Virus genome (UHGV): UHGV-0014568
From: a virus
Direction: 5' to 3' (one strand)
Length of the DNA stretch: 37,204 nucleotides
The notes under the pieces were generated by a model that did no database searches, was not told the origin of the DNA, and saw nothing but the letters and a program-made list of their open reading frames with translations. Both the position numbers and the translations under genes were made by a program. How positions within the stretch are numbered: the stretch's first letter is position 1; each line of letters begins with the position of its first letter. Positions 11,697 through 37,204 of the stretch are shown here, piece after piece.

Positions 11697-11733
11697 TTGA
11701 CATTTAACGCACGAATTATTACCTTTTAGGTAA
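11697..11733 (+). promoter_or_regulatory. Promoter-like region (TTGACA at 11697-11702) with TTACC-N5-GGTAA palindrome (11719-11733) upstream of the tRNA cassette
   Basis: Consensus -35 hexamer; no good -10 at canonical spacing; operator-like palindrome TTACCTTTTAGGTAA overlaps the expected -10/+1 region. Confidence 0.35.
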
Positions 11734-12055: not shown

Positions 12056-12132
12056 GTGGCATTAGCTCAGTCGGACAGAGCAACCGCCTTCTAAGCGGTT
12101 GGTCGCAGGTTCGAATCCTGCATGCCACGCCA
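12056..12132 (+). tRNA. tRNA-Arg (anticodon UCU, reads AGA)
   Basis: Hand-folded cloverleaf: acceptor GTGGCAT/ATGCCAC, D-stem GCTC/GAGC, anticodon stem ACCGC/GCGGT with loop CTTCTAA (TCT at 12090-12092), T-arm GCAGG-TTCGAAT-CCTGC, discriminator G and encoded CCA. Confidence 0.85.
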
Positions 12133-20753: not shown

Positions 20754-20800
20754 TTACCTTTAAGGTGCGAATAGATATGAAAAGACCGCCGGATGGCGGC
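20754..20800 (-). promoter_or_regulatory. Region after the cro-like gene: operator-variant TTACCTTTAAGGTG plus GC hairpin (possible tR1-like terminator)
   Basis: 5-bp GC stem CCGCC/GGCGG followed on the minus strand by CTTTTC; also a copy of GAATAGATATGA. Confidence 0.3.
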
Positions 20801-20823
20801 CTACAGAGGGTTGTGGCTGGATA

Positions 20824-21054
20824 TCATGAGTAGAAGAAGTATGCCAGTTCTGCTTTTGAGCGCAGCCATTGTCTTGTTTTACAGGCTTTAAAAAGCCCAT
20901 TCATCAATACCTTACCTGGCATTTTGCGCTTACCTGTTAAGTGAGTCTGGATATAGTGACTCGTCGTTCCGGCTTCCTGTGCGAAGGCTTCACGCTCATC
21001 CGGAGTAAGTGCAAGCCAGTGCTTTTTGAAATCGAAATGTCCGTTATCGCTCAT
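20824..21054 (-). CDS. Cro-like small HTH regulator
   Basis: 76-aa ORF divergent from the repressor gene across an operator-rich gap; HTH-like segment LTPDEREAFAQEAGTTSHYIQTHLTGKR; first gene of the long minus-strand series. Confidence 0.5.
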   Translation of the reverse strand: MSDNGHFDFKKHWLALTPDEREAFAQEAGTTSHYIQTHLTGKRKMPGKVLMNGLFKACKTRQWLRSKAELAYFFYS

Positions 21055-21091
21055 AGCTATTGCCTGATATTTATTTCAGATAATAAATATT

Positions 21092-21208: not shown

Positions 21209-21793
21209 ATGAAAAGTATCCAGGACGTCCGCAGGCAAAATCTCAACGACTTGATCGACCGTGAATTCAATGGTGTTCAGACGCGGATGGCAGAAAAACT
21301 TGGAACTCAGGCAAATCTGGTAAACCGCTGGGCTCTTGGCAAGAAGGTTATCGGCGACCAGGTTGCGCGAAAAATTGAAGCTGCCGCCAATAAACCCCGT
21401 AACTGGCTTGATATCGATCGCTCGCTTTCTCAAGAAGGTTTTCAGCCTGTCGGACCAAGCGACATTGGTCAGCTGGCGGCTCACAACCTGGAACGCTGGA
21501 TGAGCGAAAGCCGAGACCTTTCAACGCAGGGAAAACTTCACCGCGCATCCGGCGTCGCCCAGGTGACAATCAGCCGCCTGTTAAACAATGAGGTCAGCGT
21601 TTCCATTTCCACCCTGGAGAATGTTGCATCCGCATTCGGGCGTCACGGCTATGAATTACTGATTCACCCGCACGACCCTGCGACTATCAACTATGATCGC
21701 TCGCGCTACGCATTGTTACCTGAAACAGAGAAGGCAAAGATCGAAAGTTACATTGAATTTGTCATCAACCAGAACGAAAAAAGCAAACAATAA
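21209..21793 (+). CDS. Prophage repressor candidate (CI position) with two XRE-type HTH domains and no peptidase domain
   Basis: 194-aa ORF between the OR-like and OL-like regions, with its own terminator; two HTH-like segments (QTRMAEKLGTQANLVNRW and GVAQVTISRLLNNE); no Ser/Lys S24 autopeptidase motifs seen. Confidence 0.5.
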   Translation: MKSIQDVRRQNLNDLIDREFNGVQTRMAEKLGTQANLVNRWALGKKVIGDQVARKIEAAANKPRNWLDIDRSLSQEGFQPVGPSDIGQLAAHNLERWMSESRDLSTQGKLHRASGVAQVTISRLLNNEVSVSISTLENVASAFGRHGYELLIHPHDPATINYDRSRYALLPETEKAKIESYIEFVINQNEKSKQ

Positions 21794-21850: not shown

Positions 21851-21927
21851 TTACCTTACGGGTAATTTTTTTAACTCATATCTATTGACAACAAACCAAA
21901 TACGCATAATTATTACCTAAACGGTAA
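21851..21927 (+). promoter_or_regulatory. OL/PL-like promoter with two TTACC-N5-GGTAA operators
   Basis: TTACCTTACGGGTAA (21851-21865), -35 TTGACA (21885-21890), CATAAT-like -10 region and TTACCTAAACGGTAA (21913-21927) just before the first gene of the plus-strand operon. Confidence 0.55.
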
Positions 21928-24206: not shown

Positions 24207-24455
24207 ATGAAAGGTGCATTAGGTAAGAAGGAACTCCTGGCGGTGGTGCCACTGTCATGGAGCACTATCGACCGTATGGAGCGCGCAGGGGAATTTCCTA
24301 AACGCTGGTATATCACCGATAAACGCTGCGCATGGAACCGCGATGAAGTTGAGCGTTGGCTTGATGAACGTCAGGCAGCAAGCCCGGCAGAGTTCCAGGG
24401 TAAAAAACCTCCTGTTCAGCAACGTGTATATCGTCCTGTGAGCAACGCGGCATGA
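24207..24455 (+). CDS. AlpA-family small DNA-binding protein (regulator or excisionase candidate)
   Basis: 82-aa ORF with strong RBS; LLAVVPLSWSTIDRMERAGEFPKRWYI...W...EVERWL matches the AlpA/Xis pattern from memory. Confidence 0.5.
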   Translation: MKGALGKKELLAVVPLSWSTIDRMERAGEFPKRWYITDKRCAWNRDEVERWLDERQAASPAEFQGKKPPVQQRVYRPVSNAA

Positions 24456-25701: not shown

Positions 25702-26952
25702 TTATTCCCCCGCCATCCACTTCTCAAACTTCGACGGGGAGAACGGAATCAGATCCGTATGCTCCCCGTTAATCCAGGAATCAATCATATCGGCCCACTG
25801 CTGCAACATGTAGGCGCGCTGTCTGGCATATTCCGCTTTGTTATATACGGCGCGCACACCTTTCTGCTCATGTGCCAGAGCCTTTTCAATCCAGTCTGAA
25901 GGATAACCAGCCTCATGCAACAACGTACTGGCTGTACGGCGCATATCATGTACAGTGAAGTCCTGAATATGCTCACCATCTTCATTTATTATTTTCACCG
26001 TTCTGTCGATCAGAGAGTTCAGCGCGGCATTAGATAATGGCTTCCGGAAGTTGTAACGACCAGGAACCAGATATTCACTTCCACCAGCGCACATCTGCAA
26101 CCCGACCAATATATCCTGTGCCTGTTTAGGCAGGTAAATAACGTGCGCCCGGCTTCCCTTCATGCGGTCTGAAGGAATTGTCCATGTCCATTTTTTAAAA
26201 TCTATTTCGTCCCACGTTGCATTGGTGAATTCGCCTTTACGAACCATAGTGATAAGCACCAGTTTTAAAGCCATTTTCATAGTGCCCATAGCACCAATGG
26301 CATCCAACGTGCGGAAGAACAGGCCAATTTCTTCTGGTGTCAGTGTTCGCTCTCGTGGTTTAAATATGGCGATAGACGAAGGCTTAATGTCAGCCGCAGG
26401 ATTAAACAAACCATGACCACGGTCATTGGCGTGACGGTATACGCTGCTGATGATCTCCCTGGCCTGCACTGCTGTTGCCCGGCCACCGCGTTCGACAATC
26501 CGGTCACACAAATCACGAACCATCGATGTGGTAATTTCAGCCATCATTTTGTTGCCAAGAACCGGAAGTATGTCACGGTCGATCACTGCCTGCTTCATTG
26601 CGCGGGTACTTTCAGCCATGATGACGTGTTTCATATAACTGTCGGTATGTACCGCAAACGTCTCGGCACCACGAATCTTTTTGATACCGTCACGTTTAGC
26701 CGCAGCCGGCGACTGGCCTGCTTTAAGCAGCTTCTTTGCAGCAATCAGTTCTTCCCGCGCTTCTGCCAGGCTTATACCGTCACGCCCATACTGCCCGATT
26801 ACCAGTGTTTCGCGGCGACCGTTGATACGGTAGTCATAGCGAAACGAGACCGTACCTGACGTAAGCACAGCTACATACAGCCCGTCACGATCGGAGACTT
26901 TGTACAGTTTGTCCTGCGGCTTGAGGTTTTTCAATTTTGTATCGGTAAGCAC
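25702..26952 (-). CDS. int: Tyrosine integrase, P4-like family
   Basis: 416-aa ORF; N-terminus LTDTKLKNLKPQDKLYKVSDRDGLYV typical of P4-type integrases; C-terminal catalytic region with HDMRRT and Y-containing tail; GTG start. Confidence 0.85.
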   Translation of the reverse strand: MLTDTKLKNLKPQDKLYKVSDRDGLYVAVLTSGTVSFRYDYRINGRRETLVIGQYGRDGISLAEAREELIAAKKLLKAGQSPAAAKRDGIKKIRGAETFAVHTDSYMKHVIMAESTRAMKQAVIDRDILPVLGNKMMAEITTSMVRDLCDRIVERGGRATAVQAREIISSVYRHANDRGHGLFNPAADIKPSSIAIFKPRERTLTPEEIGLFFRTLDAIGAMGTMKMALKLVLITMVRKGEFTNATWDEIDFKKWTWTIPSDRMKGSRAHVIYLPKQAQDILVGLQMCAGGSEYLVPGRYNFRKPLSNAALNSLIDRTVKIINEDGEHIQDFTVHDMRRTASTLLHEAGYPSDWIEKALAHEQKGVRAVYNKAEYARQRAYMLQQWADMIDSWINGEHTDLIPFSPSKFEKWMAGE

Positions 26953-27269
26953 AATTCACCCGTATAGAAACCATTTTCATGACGGTATGAGAGTATACCT
27001 TTCGGGTAATACCGTCACCTATACCGTCGAAAAATGTGGTGTAGAGTGAATAGATATGAGTAGATATAAACAAAAACCCTCTGCAATTACAGAGGGTTAG
27101 GGAAGACATTGAATAGATATGATGTGCTATGAACTAGCTATACATCATTCCCACTCAATTATTTACGAAAGCCATAACCAATTGAGTGATAACATTTTTC
27201 CAAAACCTCATTTTTTTAGTACCGTTTTATATACCGTCACCGGAAATCAGTACCATGAAAAATGCCATG
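26953..27269. other. Candidate attP region with arm-type repeats
   Basis: TACCGTC core four times (26981-26987 inverted, 27010-27016, 27022-28, 27232-27238), (T)GAATAGATATGA twice (27048-27059, 27111-27122), in the gap between int and Rz. Confidence 0.35.
27064..27098 (-). terminator. Rho-independent terminator ending the lysis/late transcript
   Basis: 9-bp perfect stem AACCCTCTG/CAGAGGGTT with 6-nt loop, followed on the minus strand by TTTTTGTTTAT. Confidence 0.65.
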
Positions 27270-27752
27270 CTATCTTGTCAGGGTGTCATACTGTTTTTCG
27301 CAGACTCTTCCGGCTTCGGCTGCCCGGTCAGCATACTCTGCCAGTTGTCTGTTTCTCTCGAGAGATTTGCTGAGCACGTCGGCAAGCAAAACTCCGGTGT
27401 CTGCGGCTGACGTCCCAGCGCCGACAATGGCGTTATACTGCCTGAGCTGCTCACGGATGGCAAAGAGTTGTTGCTGCAACCTGCCAGCGCGAACGGCAGC
27501 ATCAAGAGCATCATTGCGCGCCTGGTCGATCCTCTGCTGAGCTTCACGTTCATTGGTCGCTTTCTCCCGTTCGTACTGCTTACGAATTCTCTCATCTTCA
27601 GCTTTGCGGTCTTCCTTAGCCTGCGCATACCCGGCGTCGTACTGACGACTGCCGTGTGCATTCCAGGCTACAACTCCTGATATTACCAGAACAGCAAGCA
27701 TCACCATGATAACCAACTGTTTCCAGTATGCTTTTGCGAATGCCCAGATCAT
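27270..27752 (-). CDS. Rz-like inner-membrane spanin
   Basis: 160-aa ORF overlapping the endolysin stop; N-terminal TM ([18 protein letters not shown]) then charged coiled-coil region. Confidence 0.6.
27278..27514 (-). CDS. Rz1-like outer-membrane lipoprotein spanin embedded in the +1 frame of Rz
   Basis: Signal peptide with lipobox ([13 protein letters not shown]), Pro-rich mature part; wholly inside the Rz gene. Confidence 0.5.
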   Translation of the reverse strand: MMLLMLPFALAGCSNNSLPSVSSSGSITPLSALGRQPQTPEFCLPTCSANLSRETDNWQSMLTGQPKPEESAKNSMTP

Positions 27753-28378: not shown

Positions 28379-28676
28379 ATTTAGACCTCGTTATTTTGAA
28401 AATCTGAACGACGTTACCGCGCGTTTTAATAACCGCAGCAAGCATGACAGCGTTGATAATGACCTCAGATAAATCCACAACCATTGGCGTGCGTAACCAG
28501 ATTGCATAAACAACACGAACAGGGATACTGGCCGCTGCAACAATCAGGAAATAAGCAAGCCACCCACCCCATCTCCTGTGTTGAGAACCGTTTCTCCGAA
28601 ATGTGGCAACTCGAACTGCTATACCGGCGCAAATAGCCGCATTGGTGATAAGCAAAAAAAGCTCATGAGTTACCAT
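28368..28676 (-). CDS. Holin (three predicted TM segments)
   Basis: 102-aa ORF immediately upstream of and overlapping the endolysin; three hydrophobic stretches; GGAG RBS. Confidence 0.5.
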
Positions 28677-29067
28677 CGTCTTTTCTCCCCGGAATTAACT
28701 CGCGTGGATTATCGGAACGGTGATAGAGCCAGATTCCAATTCGCACTGCGACGATTGCTGACACAAATGCACCGGCAGAGAAAACAATCCCTTTCTCGAA
28801 AGAATCCTGTGTGATTGTAGGGATCAGGCTGGCTATGCCGATAAGAATTGATGCTGCTGGTTTGTAGAATAGAAGTCCGCATAGAAAGCTAAGCATCGAC
28901 AAAAGCACGCGACGACGAATTGGATACTCTACCGCAGAGGTAACAAAAATTACCGCCCCAGACAAAGACCCCAAAGCAACCTCAGGAGGAACACCGGCCA
29001 CAACCGCAATAAAAGAACTAACACTAAGCCACTGATTTAAAGACTCACTTGTTAGTTGAACTGACAT
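28663..29067 (-). CDS. Multi-pass membrane protein of the lysis cassette (second holin or antiholin candidate)
   Basis: 133 aa from ATG 29067 with GGTGG RBS (track's longer ORF starts at 29157); several hydrophobic segments; overlaps the holin start. Confidence 0.4.
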   Translation of the reverse strand: MSVQLTSESLNQWLSVSSFIAVVAGVPPEVALGSLSGAVIFVTSAVEYPIRRRVLLSMLSFLCGLLFYKPAASILIGIASLIPTITQDSFEKGIVFSAGAFVSAIVAVRIGIWLYHRSDNPRELIPGRKDDGNS

Positions 29068-29168
29068 AAAAACCACCGTTTCATGTGCATGAAGAACCCA
29101 CTTATTTGTGAGTTCATCATACACAATAAACCATATGTGGTTAAACCATAAAGACAACTATCTTGTCT

Positions 29169-31907
29169 TTATTGGATAATATGGAACGAATTTTTAACAT
29201 GAATAGTAGCAGAATTATTACTATTATTAATTAAAGCGATCTTCCCGCCAGAATATCCGGGAACAGCCTGTTGAACAGTTCCGCCAGTAGTGGGTTTAAC
29301 TGTTATTGTAGGTACTGACCCTGCCAGGCCAGCTGTAAGCTTGACCTCACCTGTCACATCGCAAGTCAATGTGCCGACAACAGTAAGAGCGCCGAAAAGC
29401 ATTGTTGAAATCTCAATTCCAGTTGAAGTTCTCTTTGCAACAACTCCGCTTTGTGAAGTAGGTTTATAGTAAAAAATCACTCCACAGCCAACAGGAATTG
29501 ATGATAAAGCAACGTTTTGAACATTTGGTGATTTAGTTGCACCATACATATCAGGAGATTCATCATTAGCAGTTTCTGCCGCATACGACAATAACAAATC
29601 AGCTCTATCCCTTACCTGCCCATATACTCCTTTTATTGCATTTTCAGCAAGATACACTGAAGCGCTTTGCGAGCATGACTCTTTCAAATCTCCTCTAAAC
29701 AACAGCCCTGGTGGATATACTTTTGATGGCGTACCATCGTAAATAATCTCAATCTGATTAAGTCCTTTTTTAAGGGTTCCAAGGTGAGTGGTTAGTTTGT
29801 TTGTAAACGATGAGACGCCATTACTAGCGATATTACCAGAACTAAATGCTGTATTACGGATATCTTGTTGTCGGATAGAGATGGAGTTAGCGCGACCGTT
29901 TGCAACATATGTTGGGTTATACGGCTCAAAAACAACCAATGATATATCAGAAGTTTCACACCAGACAAAATATCGTATGGTTAAATTTTCAGTAGCTGGG
30001 TAAACCACGCCCCAGCCAGTTAGACCATTTAGATACGTGTCTCCACTCAACCGCTCCATACCAACGCTGTACGTGCTACCAGACGGGAAGCCAAATGGCT
30101 GGATATCATTATCAACTGTTGGTACGAAGTTATTCCCTTTTTTCGCAGTGTGGACTCTATACGGCATAACAGCCTTTGCTGCATATGCGCCGATATATTG
30201 ATGGCCCAGAGGAGCAAAATGCGTGCTATCAAAAGTGCCATCTGTCGGGCGCCGAGCAATATCTTCAAGCGTATAGCTTCCGAGGTCTCTGTACATCTCG
30301 GTTACTGGCTGAGAGAGATCGAGGAACTCTACCGCAGGGAACAGGCGTTCAATATGCTTCTTAATTGATGCTTCGAGAGCCGCCCATTGTGAGCCATTCT
30401 GGTTCATTGAAACAACGCAGACGGCACATCCGTAACCCCATGCTTTACGGATAAACTGCTCAAAACGGAATAAATACTGATCGAACCCTAACGTATCAAG
30501 TTGTCCGTTATCGTTAACGCCCATGGATATGAAGCAAACGTCTGGCGGCACGTTTCCGTATGCAGTGTTTTTGAAGAAGCCATGGTCAAAGTTACGATTC
30601 GCCCACCCGTCAATGAGTCGCTTTCCAGAAGATGCGCAGTTTTCAGCCTTAAATATGTAAGCACTATTTTTAGTAAATCGGTTAAGCCAGTCGGTAAATG
30701 TGCGAAACCAAGAACCTGAACCACCATTACTATTGTGATCGTAGTTAGTTGAAGATAGGTCACCATTAGAATCGGTTGGATTAGCTGACCATCCAGCACC
30801 GTATGCGCCGTCAGTGATTGAATCACCAACGATACCAACACGACATAGCGTATTGCGGCGAGCGAACTGGTTTATTACGTTGAATGCAGTGTATTTACTG
30901 CCATGAGTTGCCAATCCAACATCAAATATGTGCTCATTCCCCCATGGATCTCTGGTGAGAATTTTTCCTTCACCGATAAATTTTGTCACATCATCATCTG
31001 GCAGGAAATTGCAGCGTAGCTGAACATCCTTCGGAACATAAATTTGTCCAGTATAAGCGTATACTGCAGCGCGGTTATCTGTCTCGCTATCAATGACTAC
31101 CCCAGGAACATATTTCACGGCTAATGCATCATTGCGATATTTACCGTTGCTTAGCTCTGTCCTTAATACAGCATCACCTACACCTATCCATGCCCCTGGA
31201 CCAACACCACCAGTAGTGGTAGGAGTTGATCCAGGCGGAACTACTTTGGGCAGTGGCCCATCCCATCTGTAGTATTCGCCGTTGCTTTCCCAGAGAAGAA
31301 CATCGTTAAGATAGATGATGGTATTACCCAACTCAAAAGATTTCTTCGTGTTATAGCCATACAATCCATTTTCTAAGGTTTCAATAATGGTGCTAAGTAT
31401 GGTACTAAATTTTGCATAAAGATCATCAGTATATTTTTTTGTAGCAGCATCTTGGGGAAGAGATGGATCACGAAGATTTCTAATATAATTTGAAAGCGCG
31501 TCATAAAAAATTGCTACGTCATTTGGCTTTCTTAAAGCCAACTTATCATTTCTTAATGATTGTTGAATGAGCATAGTAAGTTTATCAAACGCATCCTCAT
31601 GTACCTCAGCGAAGAACTTACCCTGATTACGTAAATCCGTTTCCTGAGTAGCTGGTAGTTCTCGTGATATAGATATCTGATGACCGTTAGCCAACGCCTT
31701 CGAGAGAATTACATTACCGCCGTTGTACCCTCCCGCTCCGGTGACGATGTAATCTGTATCAAGAACCAGTACGTTTATATTCTCGCTAATGTCAACAACC
31801 TGTACTACCAGATCTGATTTTTTGAAGATCCTAAATTTGTAAGGGAATGTCGTCGTAACACCATTGCCAGTGTATTCGTTGTGGTTAACTTCGGTTGAGA
31901 CCGTCAT
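29169..31907 (-). CDS. Tailspike/tail fibre with T7-type N-terminal attachment domain and SGNH (GDSL) esterase domain
   Basis: About 912 aa from ATG 31907 with GGAGA RBS (track ORF starts at 31949); N-terminus VNHNEYTGNGVTTTFPYKF resembles podovirus fibre N-terminal domains; SGNH blocks GDSITDG (Ser codon at 30819-30821), GVNDNG and DSTHF. Confidence 0.7.
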   Translation of the reverse strand: MTVSTEVNHNEYTGNGVTTTFPYKFRIFKKSDLVVQVVDISENINVLVLDTDYIVTGAGGYNGGNVILSKALANGHQISISRELPATQETDLRNQGKFFAEVHEDAFDKLTMLIQQSLRNDKLALRKPNDVAIFYDALSNYIRNLRDPSLPQDAATKKYTDDLYAKFSTILSTIIETLENGLYGYNTKKSFELGNTIIYLNDVLLWESNGEYYRWDGPLPKVVPPGSTPTTTGGVGPGAWIGVGDAVLRTELSNGKYRNDALAVKYVPGVVIDSETDNRAAVYAYTGQIYVPKDVQLRCNFLPDDDVTKFIGEGKILTRDPWGNEHIFDVGLATHGSKYTAFNVINQFARRNTLCRVGIVGDSITDGAYGAGWSANPTDSNGDLSSTNYDHNSNGGSGSWFRTFTDWLNRFTKNSAYIFKAENCASSGKRLIDGWANRNFDHGFFKNTAYGNVPPDVCFISMGVNDNGQLDTLGFDQYLFRFEQFIRKAWGYGCAVCVVSMNQNGSQWAALEASIKKHIERLFPAVEFLDLSQPVTEMYRDLGSYTLEDIARRPTDGTFDSTHFAPLGHQYIGAYAAKAVMPYRVHTAKKGNNFVPTVDNDIQPFGFPSGSTYSVGMERLSGDTYLNGLTGWGVVYPATENLTIRYFVWCETSDISLVVFEPYNPTYVANGRANSISIRQQDIRNTAFSSGNIASNGVSSFTNKLTTHLGTLKKGLNQIEIIYDGTPSKVYPPGLLFRGDLKESCSQSASVYLAENAIKGVYGQVRDRADLLLSYAAETANDESPDMYGATKSPNVQNVALSSIPVGCGVIFYYKPTSQSGVVAKRTSTGIEISTMLFGALTVVGTLTCDVTGEVKLTAGLAGSVPTITVKPTTGGTVQQAVPGYSGGKIALINNSNNSATIHVKNSFHIIQ

Positions 31908-31961
31908 GTTAAATCTCCAGATAGTCGCAGCACCCGTTGCGCCGCACATCCGGTCATTCTA

Positions 31962-37179: not shown

Positions 37180-37204
37180 CACACCAGCGTAATAATCCTT
37201 TGCG

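Follow-up and report, generated by a model that had tools for sequence, protein, structure and literature searches.

The int-Rz intergenic region of virus genome UHGV-0014568 as a probable attP for integration at the 3' end of guaA

The intergenic region between the integrase gene int and the spanin gene Rz was analysed in the virus genome UHGV-0014568, a stretch of 37,204 nucleotides that is called the window below. This gap of 317 bp (26953..27269) is, with a probability of roughly 93% and as judged from sequence comparison, the attachment site (attP) of a temperate podophage of the phiV10/epsilon15 type, genus Uetakevirus, which inserts at the 3' end of the host gene guaA. The limits of the gap are exact and run from the GTG start of int (26952, minus strand) to the stop codon of Rz (27270, minus strand). 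The common core TCATTCCCACTCAAT is placed at 27145..27159 and is the reverse complement of ATT GAG TGG GAA TGA, that is, the last four codons of guaA and its stop codon. This core occurs once in the window and lies 193-207 bp from the start of int. An initial annotation, made from the letters of the sequence, had described the gap as an attP-like cluster beside int. The attP assignment was borne out by the homology of the gap to the attP of phiV10, ZX5 and epsilon15, by the core shared with guaA and by the hybrid junctions attL and attR in ET358. That annotation did not locate the core, though the interval it proposed for a BLAST search, 27030-27230, contains it.

The homology of the gap to known attachment sites was evaluated over all 317 nt, and the identity was 89% to phiV10, 88% to ZX5 and 81% to epsilon15. 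The region at large is 94% identical to phiV10 over 601 nt and 84% identical to epsilon15. Nine attP regions of Uetakevirus phages of Escherichia, Salmonella, Enterobacter and Klebsiella, which in noncoding sequence are 70% to 89% identical to the window, were aligned. The alignment revealed that 59% of the columns are invariant and clustered in discrete blocks, namely GGTAATACCGTCA (27005-27017), TAGAGTGAATAG (27042-27053), both arms of the terminator, ATCATTCCCACTCAATTATTTAC (27144-27166) and TACCGTTTTATATACCGTCAC (27220-27240). For ZX5 it has been established by PCR and Sanger sequencing that recombination with the 3' end of guaA takes place at the core attgagtgggaatgatt, which lies some 190 bp from the int 5' end (PMC9782041). 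That paper, citing Perry 2009 and Kropinski 2007, gives the same core as the attP of phiV10 and epsilon15. Sixteen of the 17 positions of the published core match the window and the lone mismatch is at the outer edge. The GenBank record of epsilon15 (NC_004775) carries 10-nt 'integrase' sites at the equivalents of 26684, 26774, 27009 and 27231, and it also marks IHF sites, a terminator and three predicted RNase III sites in or next to the region. The feature is already known in this sense, with the core and the guaA target published for ZX5, phiV10 and epsilon15 and the arm sites, IHF sites and terminator in the public record. For the present phage, the analysis adds where exactly the core lies, which gene is targeted and where the terminator sits.

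The host side of the core was read from the chromosomes. The empty attB of K-12, ...ggtcaaaTCATTCCCACTCAATggtagc..., lies at the guaA stop codon and holds the same 15-mer core; the identity with the window reaches 27144 and so amounts to 16 nt. The attL of the E. coli lysogen ET358 has the order int, P arm, ...ctatacaTCATTCCCACTCAATggtagctggcgg..., guaA, and guaA has its full length of 1578 nt. The attR was found about 40 kb from attL in the order yfgI, host terminator, ...ggtcaaaTCATTCCCACTCAATtatttacg..., P' arm, Rz. When attP, attB, attL and attR were set side by side, the core was identical in K-12 attB and in both junctions of ET358 while the flanks were reciprocal. As the attB, attL and attR junctions are reciprocal at this 15-mer, TCATTCCCACTCAAT was taken as the common core.

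The distribution of the junction in other genomes was also analysed. The gap was matched by 565 of 5426 complete E. coli genomes, so that this att arm has a match in about one genome in ten. Nearly all of these matches cover only 26953-27159 and end inside annotated guaA. Among 60 rows sampled evenly down the ranking of the E. coli matches, the match abuts guaA in 57. In genomes of Klebsiella, Citrobacter, Kluyvera, Scandinavium and Pseudocitrobacter the 21-mer of the P' arm, TACCGTTTTATATACCGTCAC, is joined via ...CCCACTCAAT to a host-type terminator region, which by analogy with E. coli is read as the sequence downstream of guaA. At the attR of Klebsiella pneumoniae ATCC 13883 and of Pseudocitrobacter faecalis the host-side part of the core is (G/A)ATTTCCCACTCAAT instead of T(C/T)ATTCCCACTCAAT. 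The remnant of the stop codon thus reads as altered or one base shorter in these two, and this could reflect drift of a remnant that no longer functions or the presence of another element next to it. A separate observation was a contig of 2643 nt assigned to Candidatus Erwinia dacicola, which holds a complete unrecombined attP with a central segment very similar to the window when both are read side by side. From its sequence, a related phage seems to be associated with this insect-symbiont assembly.

The core and its P'-side flank together make up ATCATTCCCACTCAATTATTTAC (27144..27166), the longest invariant block of the nine-phage alignment, which probably holds the core-type Int sites. A dyad matching at 7 of 9 positions, TACATCATT / TAAATAATT, was read around CCCACTC. 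From this dyad, in the form TCATT-N7-AAT(T/G), we infer that the 7-bp overlap is CCCACTC at 27150-27156. This placement of the overlap fits the integration site of the genomic island GIsul2, GAGTGGGA, which lies in the same guaA attB (PMC9376610). Host-type bases to the left of 27147 in the attR of the other genera are likewise consistent with it.

The form in which the site occurs was examined by comparison of the whole window with phiV10. The two are related by one circular permutation, with base 1 of the window equal to phiV10 14683 and base 37204 to phiV10 14684, and in this alignment the window ends abut within one gene. The two larger segments that did not align to phiV10 matched other phages, one with lambdoid early genes and one with a tailspike related to Shashou/Snoke. 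Since the ends close on phiV10 and these segments match phages, no host DNA was found in the window by these comparisons. On this evidence the window reads as a complete, circularly permuted Uetakevirus genome with the site in unrecombined (attP) form. This is in accordance with the earlier claims that phage genes, here int and Rz, continue on both sides of the gap and that the unintegrated form had been captured. The initial annotation had also stated that host junctions elsewhere in the genome, or the absence of any host match to the region, would count against it; the host core was found at guaA and no host junctions were found in the window.

The argument from flanking genes is qualified by chromosomes with tandem prophages, in which an intact attP is likewise bordered by phage genes, and the window may have been assembled through such a double prophage instead of from a phage genome that was free or circular. 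A full-length attP is present in nine complete E. coli genomes. That of Z1323CEC0007 has a prophage copy on either side, the two being about 40 kb apart, and the record shows three att places. This origin of the window was considered unlikely, as its ends meet at a single phiV10 coordinate (14683/14684) with no host sequence, as in a closed circular assembly; in either case the site is attP. In two duck isolates (NZ_CP079771.1 / NZ_CP079768.1) the attP was observed on a circular replicon of 41,027 bp, and the chromosome also carries an attL at guaA.

The target was further compared with that usual for the integrase family. No tRNA was detected in the gap by ARAGORN, and the sole tRNA of the window is tRNA-Arg at 12056-12132. 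A tRNA target was rejected, there being no tRNA in or near the gap and the core being the end of guaA. The expectation of the initial annotation that the target is not a tRNA despite a P4-type integrase therefore agrees with the result, that is, the 3' end of a protein-coding gene and an Int with the P4-type domain set.

The integrase gene int (25702..26952, minus strand) was identified from its open reading frame and Pfam matches as encoding a P4-type tyrosine integrase of 416 aa with a GTG start. The domains are Arm-DNA-bind_3 (PF13356; residues 2-87, E 3.9e-20), Phage_int_M and Phage_integrase, and the first 600 nt of the gene are 98% identical to phiV10 int. A gene of the AlpA family (24207..24455, plus strand; Pfam Phage_AlpA, E 3.1e-5, above the curated cut-off) is a candidate for the excisionase (recombination directionality factor). 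The epsilon15 homologue is annotated 'excisionase and transcriptional regulator', and from its sequence the protein is likely the excisionase.

The repeats of the gap were assessed against shuffled sequence. The motif TACCGTC has 12 copies in the window against 2.17 expected, a count reached by none of 100 shuffles, and seven of the copies fall within 26433-27238, four in the gap and three inside int. The copies in the gap start at 26981 (minus strand) and at 27010, 27022 and 27232 (plus strand), with a degenerate TACCGTT at 27220. The 10-mer ATACCGTCAC has five exact copies in the window, all of them within 810 bp (26431-27240). The repeated TACCGTC and GAATAGATATGA elements noted initially are thus real, and for TACCGTC the number is far above chance. 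An origin of the repeats by chance or composition, without function, has the small size of the motifs in its favour and nothing else. It was refuted by the shuffles, by the clustering of ATACCGTCAC and by the invariance of the motif blocks in nine diverged phages, so that its probability is negligible.

The copies of ATACCGTCAC and its variants lie on both sides of the core. On the P arm, site P1 (27009..27018, plus strand) is an exact 10-mer inside the invariant block GGTAATACCGTCA, and its epsilon15 equivalent is annotated as protein_bind 'integrase'. Site P2, ATACCGTCGA (27021..27030, plus strand), begins 12 nt after P1; its TACCG is invariant in the nine phages and its last bases vary. An inverted copy, ATACCGTCAT (26979..26988, minus strand), has one mismatch to the 10-mer and is mostly conserved as TG(A/T)CG(G/C)TA(T/C)G. 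The P' arm (27219..27240, plus strand) holds a degenerate GTACCGTTTT at 27219-27228 and an exact ATACCGTCAC at 27231-27240. The epsilon15 record marks an 'integrase' site in this arm as well. The 21-nt block TACCGTTTTATATACCGTCAC of the P' arm is invariant in the nine phages and was found exactly in eight species-representative Enterobacterales genomes. Both direct pairs are spaced 12 nt, and the sites lie at about -168, -138 and -126 bp (P) and +72 and +84 bp (P') from the core centre. Such distances are the geometry of lambda-type arm sites. Given their lambda-like distances from the core on either side and their invariance in the nine phages, the ATACCGTCAC sites are best read as arm-type integrase sites, an assignment made from position, conservation and analogy. 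The 'arm-site cluster' described initially was upheld in part, as TACCGTC fits arm-type Int sites and GAATAGATATGA is a different repeat.

Further copies of the 10-mer were observed inside int. Exact copies at 26684..26693 and 26774..26783 (both plus strand) encode RDGI on the minus strand. The former is kept in eight of the nine phages and is an 'integrase' site of the epsilon15 record; the latter is invariant in all nine while the flanking synonymous positions vary. In these two copies five of six third-codon positions are invariant in the nine phages against a background of 40/200, for which we estimated a binomial P of ~0.002. The copies lie 380-470 bp from the core, which is too far out for a lambda-like intasome, and the one at 26684 is possibly a distal arm-type or autoregulatory site. 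A ATACCGTCAC at 26431-26440 (minus strand, in int) is not conserved in relatives and was set aside as probably due to chance.

The motifs upstream of int might also serve mainly to regulate transcription, through autoregulation of int via ATACCGTCAC, through a repressor acting at a nearby dyad, or both. This is compatible with an attP, and as the chief function of the motifs it was judged rather unlikely. The dyad, TATACC-N5-GGTAAT at 26994..27010, lies about 45 nt upstream of the int start, overlaps P1 and is a candidate immunity-repressor site. It deviates at two positions from the consensus ATTACC-N5-GGTAAT, annotated 'repressor' in the epsilon15 record, and keeps the 5-nt spacing of that consensus. 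The nine phages agree in both half-sites and vary in the spacer; phiV10 and Klebsiella phage BUCT711 have this very variant. The GGTA just 5' of P1 was not found at the other arm-type copies, and the two conserved int copies beyond the reach of a lambda-like intasome also suit a regulatory role. With up to two mismatches allowed, the consensus occurs 11 times in the window where 1.04 would be expected; about one two-mismatch match per window is expected by chance, and this single match is within that expectation, so that the dyad remains a lead. The epsilon15 record marks no repressor site at this spot, and the P' sites, lying beyond the core, cannot regulate int. The consensus scan of the gap found no promoter-like site, and a -10-like TATACT picked out by hand has no -35 element, so that a promoter of int in the gap was rejected as a candidate. 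The operator specificity looks uniform in the genus, which precludes a covariation test; the repressor of BUCT711 is 46% identical and has the same consensus.

Binding of the immunity repressor, encoded at 21209-21793, to this conserved, weakened copy of the operator within the P arm of attP and attL is suggested tentatively from the sequence, and its probability is well short of even. If it does bind, the repressor would directly gate the transcription of int, the assembly of the intasome or both, tying the competence for excision to the loss of immunity. The same layer of control could include the int-internal ATACCGTCAC copies and the GAATAGATATGA repeat, which also occurs in the immunity region. 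In that case the dyad and the int-internal sites would connect immunity with the integrase at the level of regulation, in a group of phages that serve for the detection and typing of O157 and Salmonella.

The operator consensus was also located elsewhere in the window. Palindromes with at most one mismatch to ATTACC-N5-GGTAAT occur at 11718, 14845, 14863, 18697, 18759, 21138, 21850, 21912 and 32011 and extend beyond the immunity region. Of the sites checked in phiV10 coordinates, the majority are located between transcription units, which suggests that many such units are controlled by the repressor.

The GAATAGATATGA elements were analysed separately from the arm sites. Exact copies of the 12-mer were found at 27048 and 27111, and a degenerate one stands in tandem at 27058. 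The two exact copies head a pair of 25-nt direct repeats that are 80% identical, 63 nt apart and bracket the terminator. Copy A, TGAATAGATATGAGTAGATATAAAC (27047..27071, plus strand), holds GAATAGATAT/GAGTAGATAT as a 10-bp tandem, and TAGAGTGAATAG is invariant in the nine phages. Copy B, TGAATAGATATGATGTGCTATGAAC (27110..27134, plus strand), is conserved in them as TGA(A/G)TAG..ATGA. These elements are a different conserved repeat and should not be called Int arm sites. The 25-nt repeats are candidate excisionase sites. A role of GAATAGATATGA as the repressor operator was ruled out, as the operators are a different, well-defined palindrome, ATTACC-N5-GGTAAT. Copies with one or two mismatches at gene starts (window 21051-21062 and the phiV10 and epsilon15 equivalents) were discarded and look like unrelated translation-initiation regions. 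Outside the gap, a third exact copy was observed at 20769-20780 and a copy matching at 11 of 12 positions at 21876-21887, the latter overlapping the -35 TTGACA of a pL-like promoter. Both adjoin operators and terminators of the immunity region and, read along the transcript, each comes after a terminator hairpin. The sequence at 20803-20812 (ACAGAGGGTT) equals one arm of the att terminator.

A rho-independent terminator was found by the terminator scan at 27098..27075 (minus strand), with a 10-bp stem AACCCTCTGT/GCAGAGGGTT and a T-rich tail toward int. It lies inside the gap, between the two GAATAGATATGA copies, and the initial annotation, which had placed the terminator of the lysis operon at the edge of the gap, was corrected in this point. 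The stem is conserved in the nine phages and the terminator is annotated in the phiV10 and epsilon15 records. The stem of the phage hairpin AAAAACCCTCTGCAATTACAGAGGGTT is nearly the same as that of the K-12 guaA terminator AAAAAACCCTCTGTAGTAACAGAGGGTTTT. The stem AACCCTCTG...CAGAGGGTT (window 27073-27099) is nearly shared with core-side terminators in Escherichia, where guaA is annotated, and in Klebsiella, Citrobacter and Kluyvera, where they lie next to attR. As the hairpin has the same side of the core and the same orientation in attP and attB, integration would swap the phage and host hairpins. It follows directly, on the sequences compared, that after integration guaA would be ended by the phage hairpin at attL and the lysis operon by the host hairpin at attR. 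The phage may have acquired its terminator from a host.

Between the core and the P' arm, three IHF-like sites were found in 27153..27191, at 27153-27165 (plus strand), 27175-27187 (minus strand) and 27179-27191 (minus strand), within the inverted repeat CACTCAATTATTTA / TAACCAATTGAGTG. Each matches the IHF consensus WATCAANNNNTTR with one mismatch, against 0.77 such matches expected, and the matches are weak ones. IHF sites are predicted at equivalent positions in the epsilon15 record.

The gap could also function chiefly as structured RNA, that is, the 3' untranslated region of the lysis operon (or of guaA in a lysogen), with RNase III hairpins that control int or the lysis genes as in lambda sib. 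The minus-strand RNA from the Rz stop to the terminator (27269..27055, 215 nt) folds at -61.9 kcal/mol, with a z value of -4.7 against shuffles, and the three predicted RNase III sites of the epsilon15 record lie in or near the region. The covariation term of +0.49 in the nine-phage alignment gives no support, as four of 52 pairs are doubly changed and most are invariant. The hairpins are made of DNA inverted repeats that also form the arm sites, the core and the terminator. No Rfam match rose above threshold, and the sub-threshold rli38, MicX and mir-310 were taken as chance. In addition, int lies downstream of attP, unlike in lambda, and retroregulation of the sib type is not directly transferable. 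A mainly RNA-level function of the gap was accordingly regarded as very unlikely.

Some points weigh against the assignment of the gap as a guaA-directed attP. The basis for this particular phage is sequence comparison. The core of the window differs from the published 17-mer at the last base (G, not T), with 16 nt shared with the E. coli attB. The attribution of ATACCGTCAC to Int rests on position, conservation and analogy, and the P and P' sites share one orientation, unlike those of lambda. The IHF matches have one mismatch each and are weak. A sigma-70-like promoter of int was not found in the gap by the consensus scan.

Taken as an attP directed to guaA, the gap would very probably act as a complex attP that ordinary integrase-mediated, site-specific recombination joins to the guaA 3' end, the gene being restored by phage codons and terminator. 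The N-terminal arm-binding domain of Int would bind the ATACCGTCAC-type sites on both sides of the core, and its catalytic and core-binding domains would bind the core TCATTCCCACTCAAT (27145-27159). The DNA would be bent by host IHF, a role that, like the pairing of proteins with repeats, we infer from the sites. Strand exchange with the identical 15-16 bp at the chromosomal guaA 3' end would take place probably across CCCACTC. The last four guaA codons and the stop are part of the phage core, and about 45 nt beyond it lies a terminator much like that of guaA. Integration would leave guaA full length and terminated at attL, next to int, and the host guaA terminator would end up behind the phage lysis operon at attR. 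Excision would likely require the AlpA-family protein (24207-24455) as excisionase. The analysis fixes the integration target (the guaA 3' end) and the core coordinates for this phage and has little import beyond correct annotation. The case is also an example of how a phage can enter a gene of an essential pathway without harm by supplying its last codons and a look-alike terminator.

Other features of the genome were noted apart from the att region. The tRNA-Arg(TCT) at 12056-12132 lies between the structural and terminase regions of the window. A tRNA-Arg is annotated in the comparable region (portal-terminase) of the related prophage in E. coli Z1323CEC0007 and not in the phiV10 record. 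The tailspike (29146-31949, 926 aa) is not of the phiV10 type, and its body is about 82% identical to the tailspikes of Shashou, Snoke and Sciku. The interval between the tailspike and lysis genes (window 28663-29157) has no room for the phiV10 O-acetyltransferase gene (oac), and therefore the serotype-conversion function of oac is probably absent from this phage. The lysis genes end with the gene for the Rz-like spanin (DUF2514; 27270..27752, minus strand), the last of the lysis operon, which adjoins the P' arm and has the endolysin and holins upstream.

The arrangement was finally compared with known systems. Like the attP of lambda, the site has a core with arm-type repeats at about -170 to -125 and +70 to +85 bp, an integrase with a separate arm-binding domain, IHF-like sites and a small helix-turn-helix excisionase candidate. 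It differs from lambda in that the integrase is of the P4 type, the P and P' sites have one orientation and, in the direction of transcription, attP comes before int, which in lambda lies upstream. The target also differs: it is the end of a protein-coding gene, and the phage brings in the 3' end and the terminator of that gene, as known here from sequence. P4, CP4-57 and other elements whose P4-type integrases target tRNA or tmRNA genes differ in their target, the present one not being a tRNA and the gap holding no tRNA-like sequence. They are alike in the combination of Arm-DNA-bind_3, Phage_int_M and Phage_integrase with an AlpA-type partner, and in an attP that restores the target gene by bringing along its 3' end. 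GIsul2 is a genomic island and not a phage, the segment of identity reported for it is shorter (8 bp), and its arms may be unrelated. It shares the chromosomal spot, GAGTGGGA in the last guaA codons, and carries int and alpA (PMC9376610). The closest likeness is to ZX5, phiV10 and epsilon15. The present phage differs from the published core by G for T at the outer edge (27143), and its central segment (27040-27145) is closer to Enterobacter phage BUCT554 than to phiV10, from which it also differs by another tailspike and by the lack of the O-acetyltransferase gene. It agrees with these three phages in the int-Rz position, the core (16/17), the ATACCGTCAC sites, the terminator, the IHF-like sites, the integrase family and the guaA target, the last being seen here in E. 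coli lysogens.

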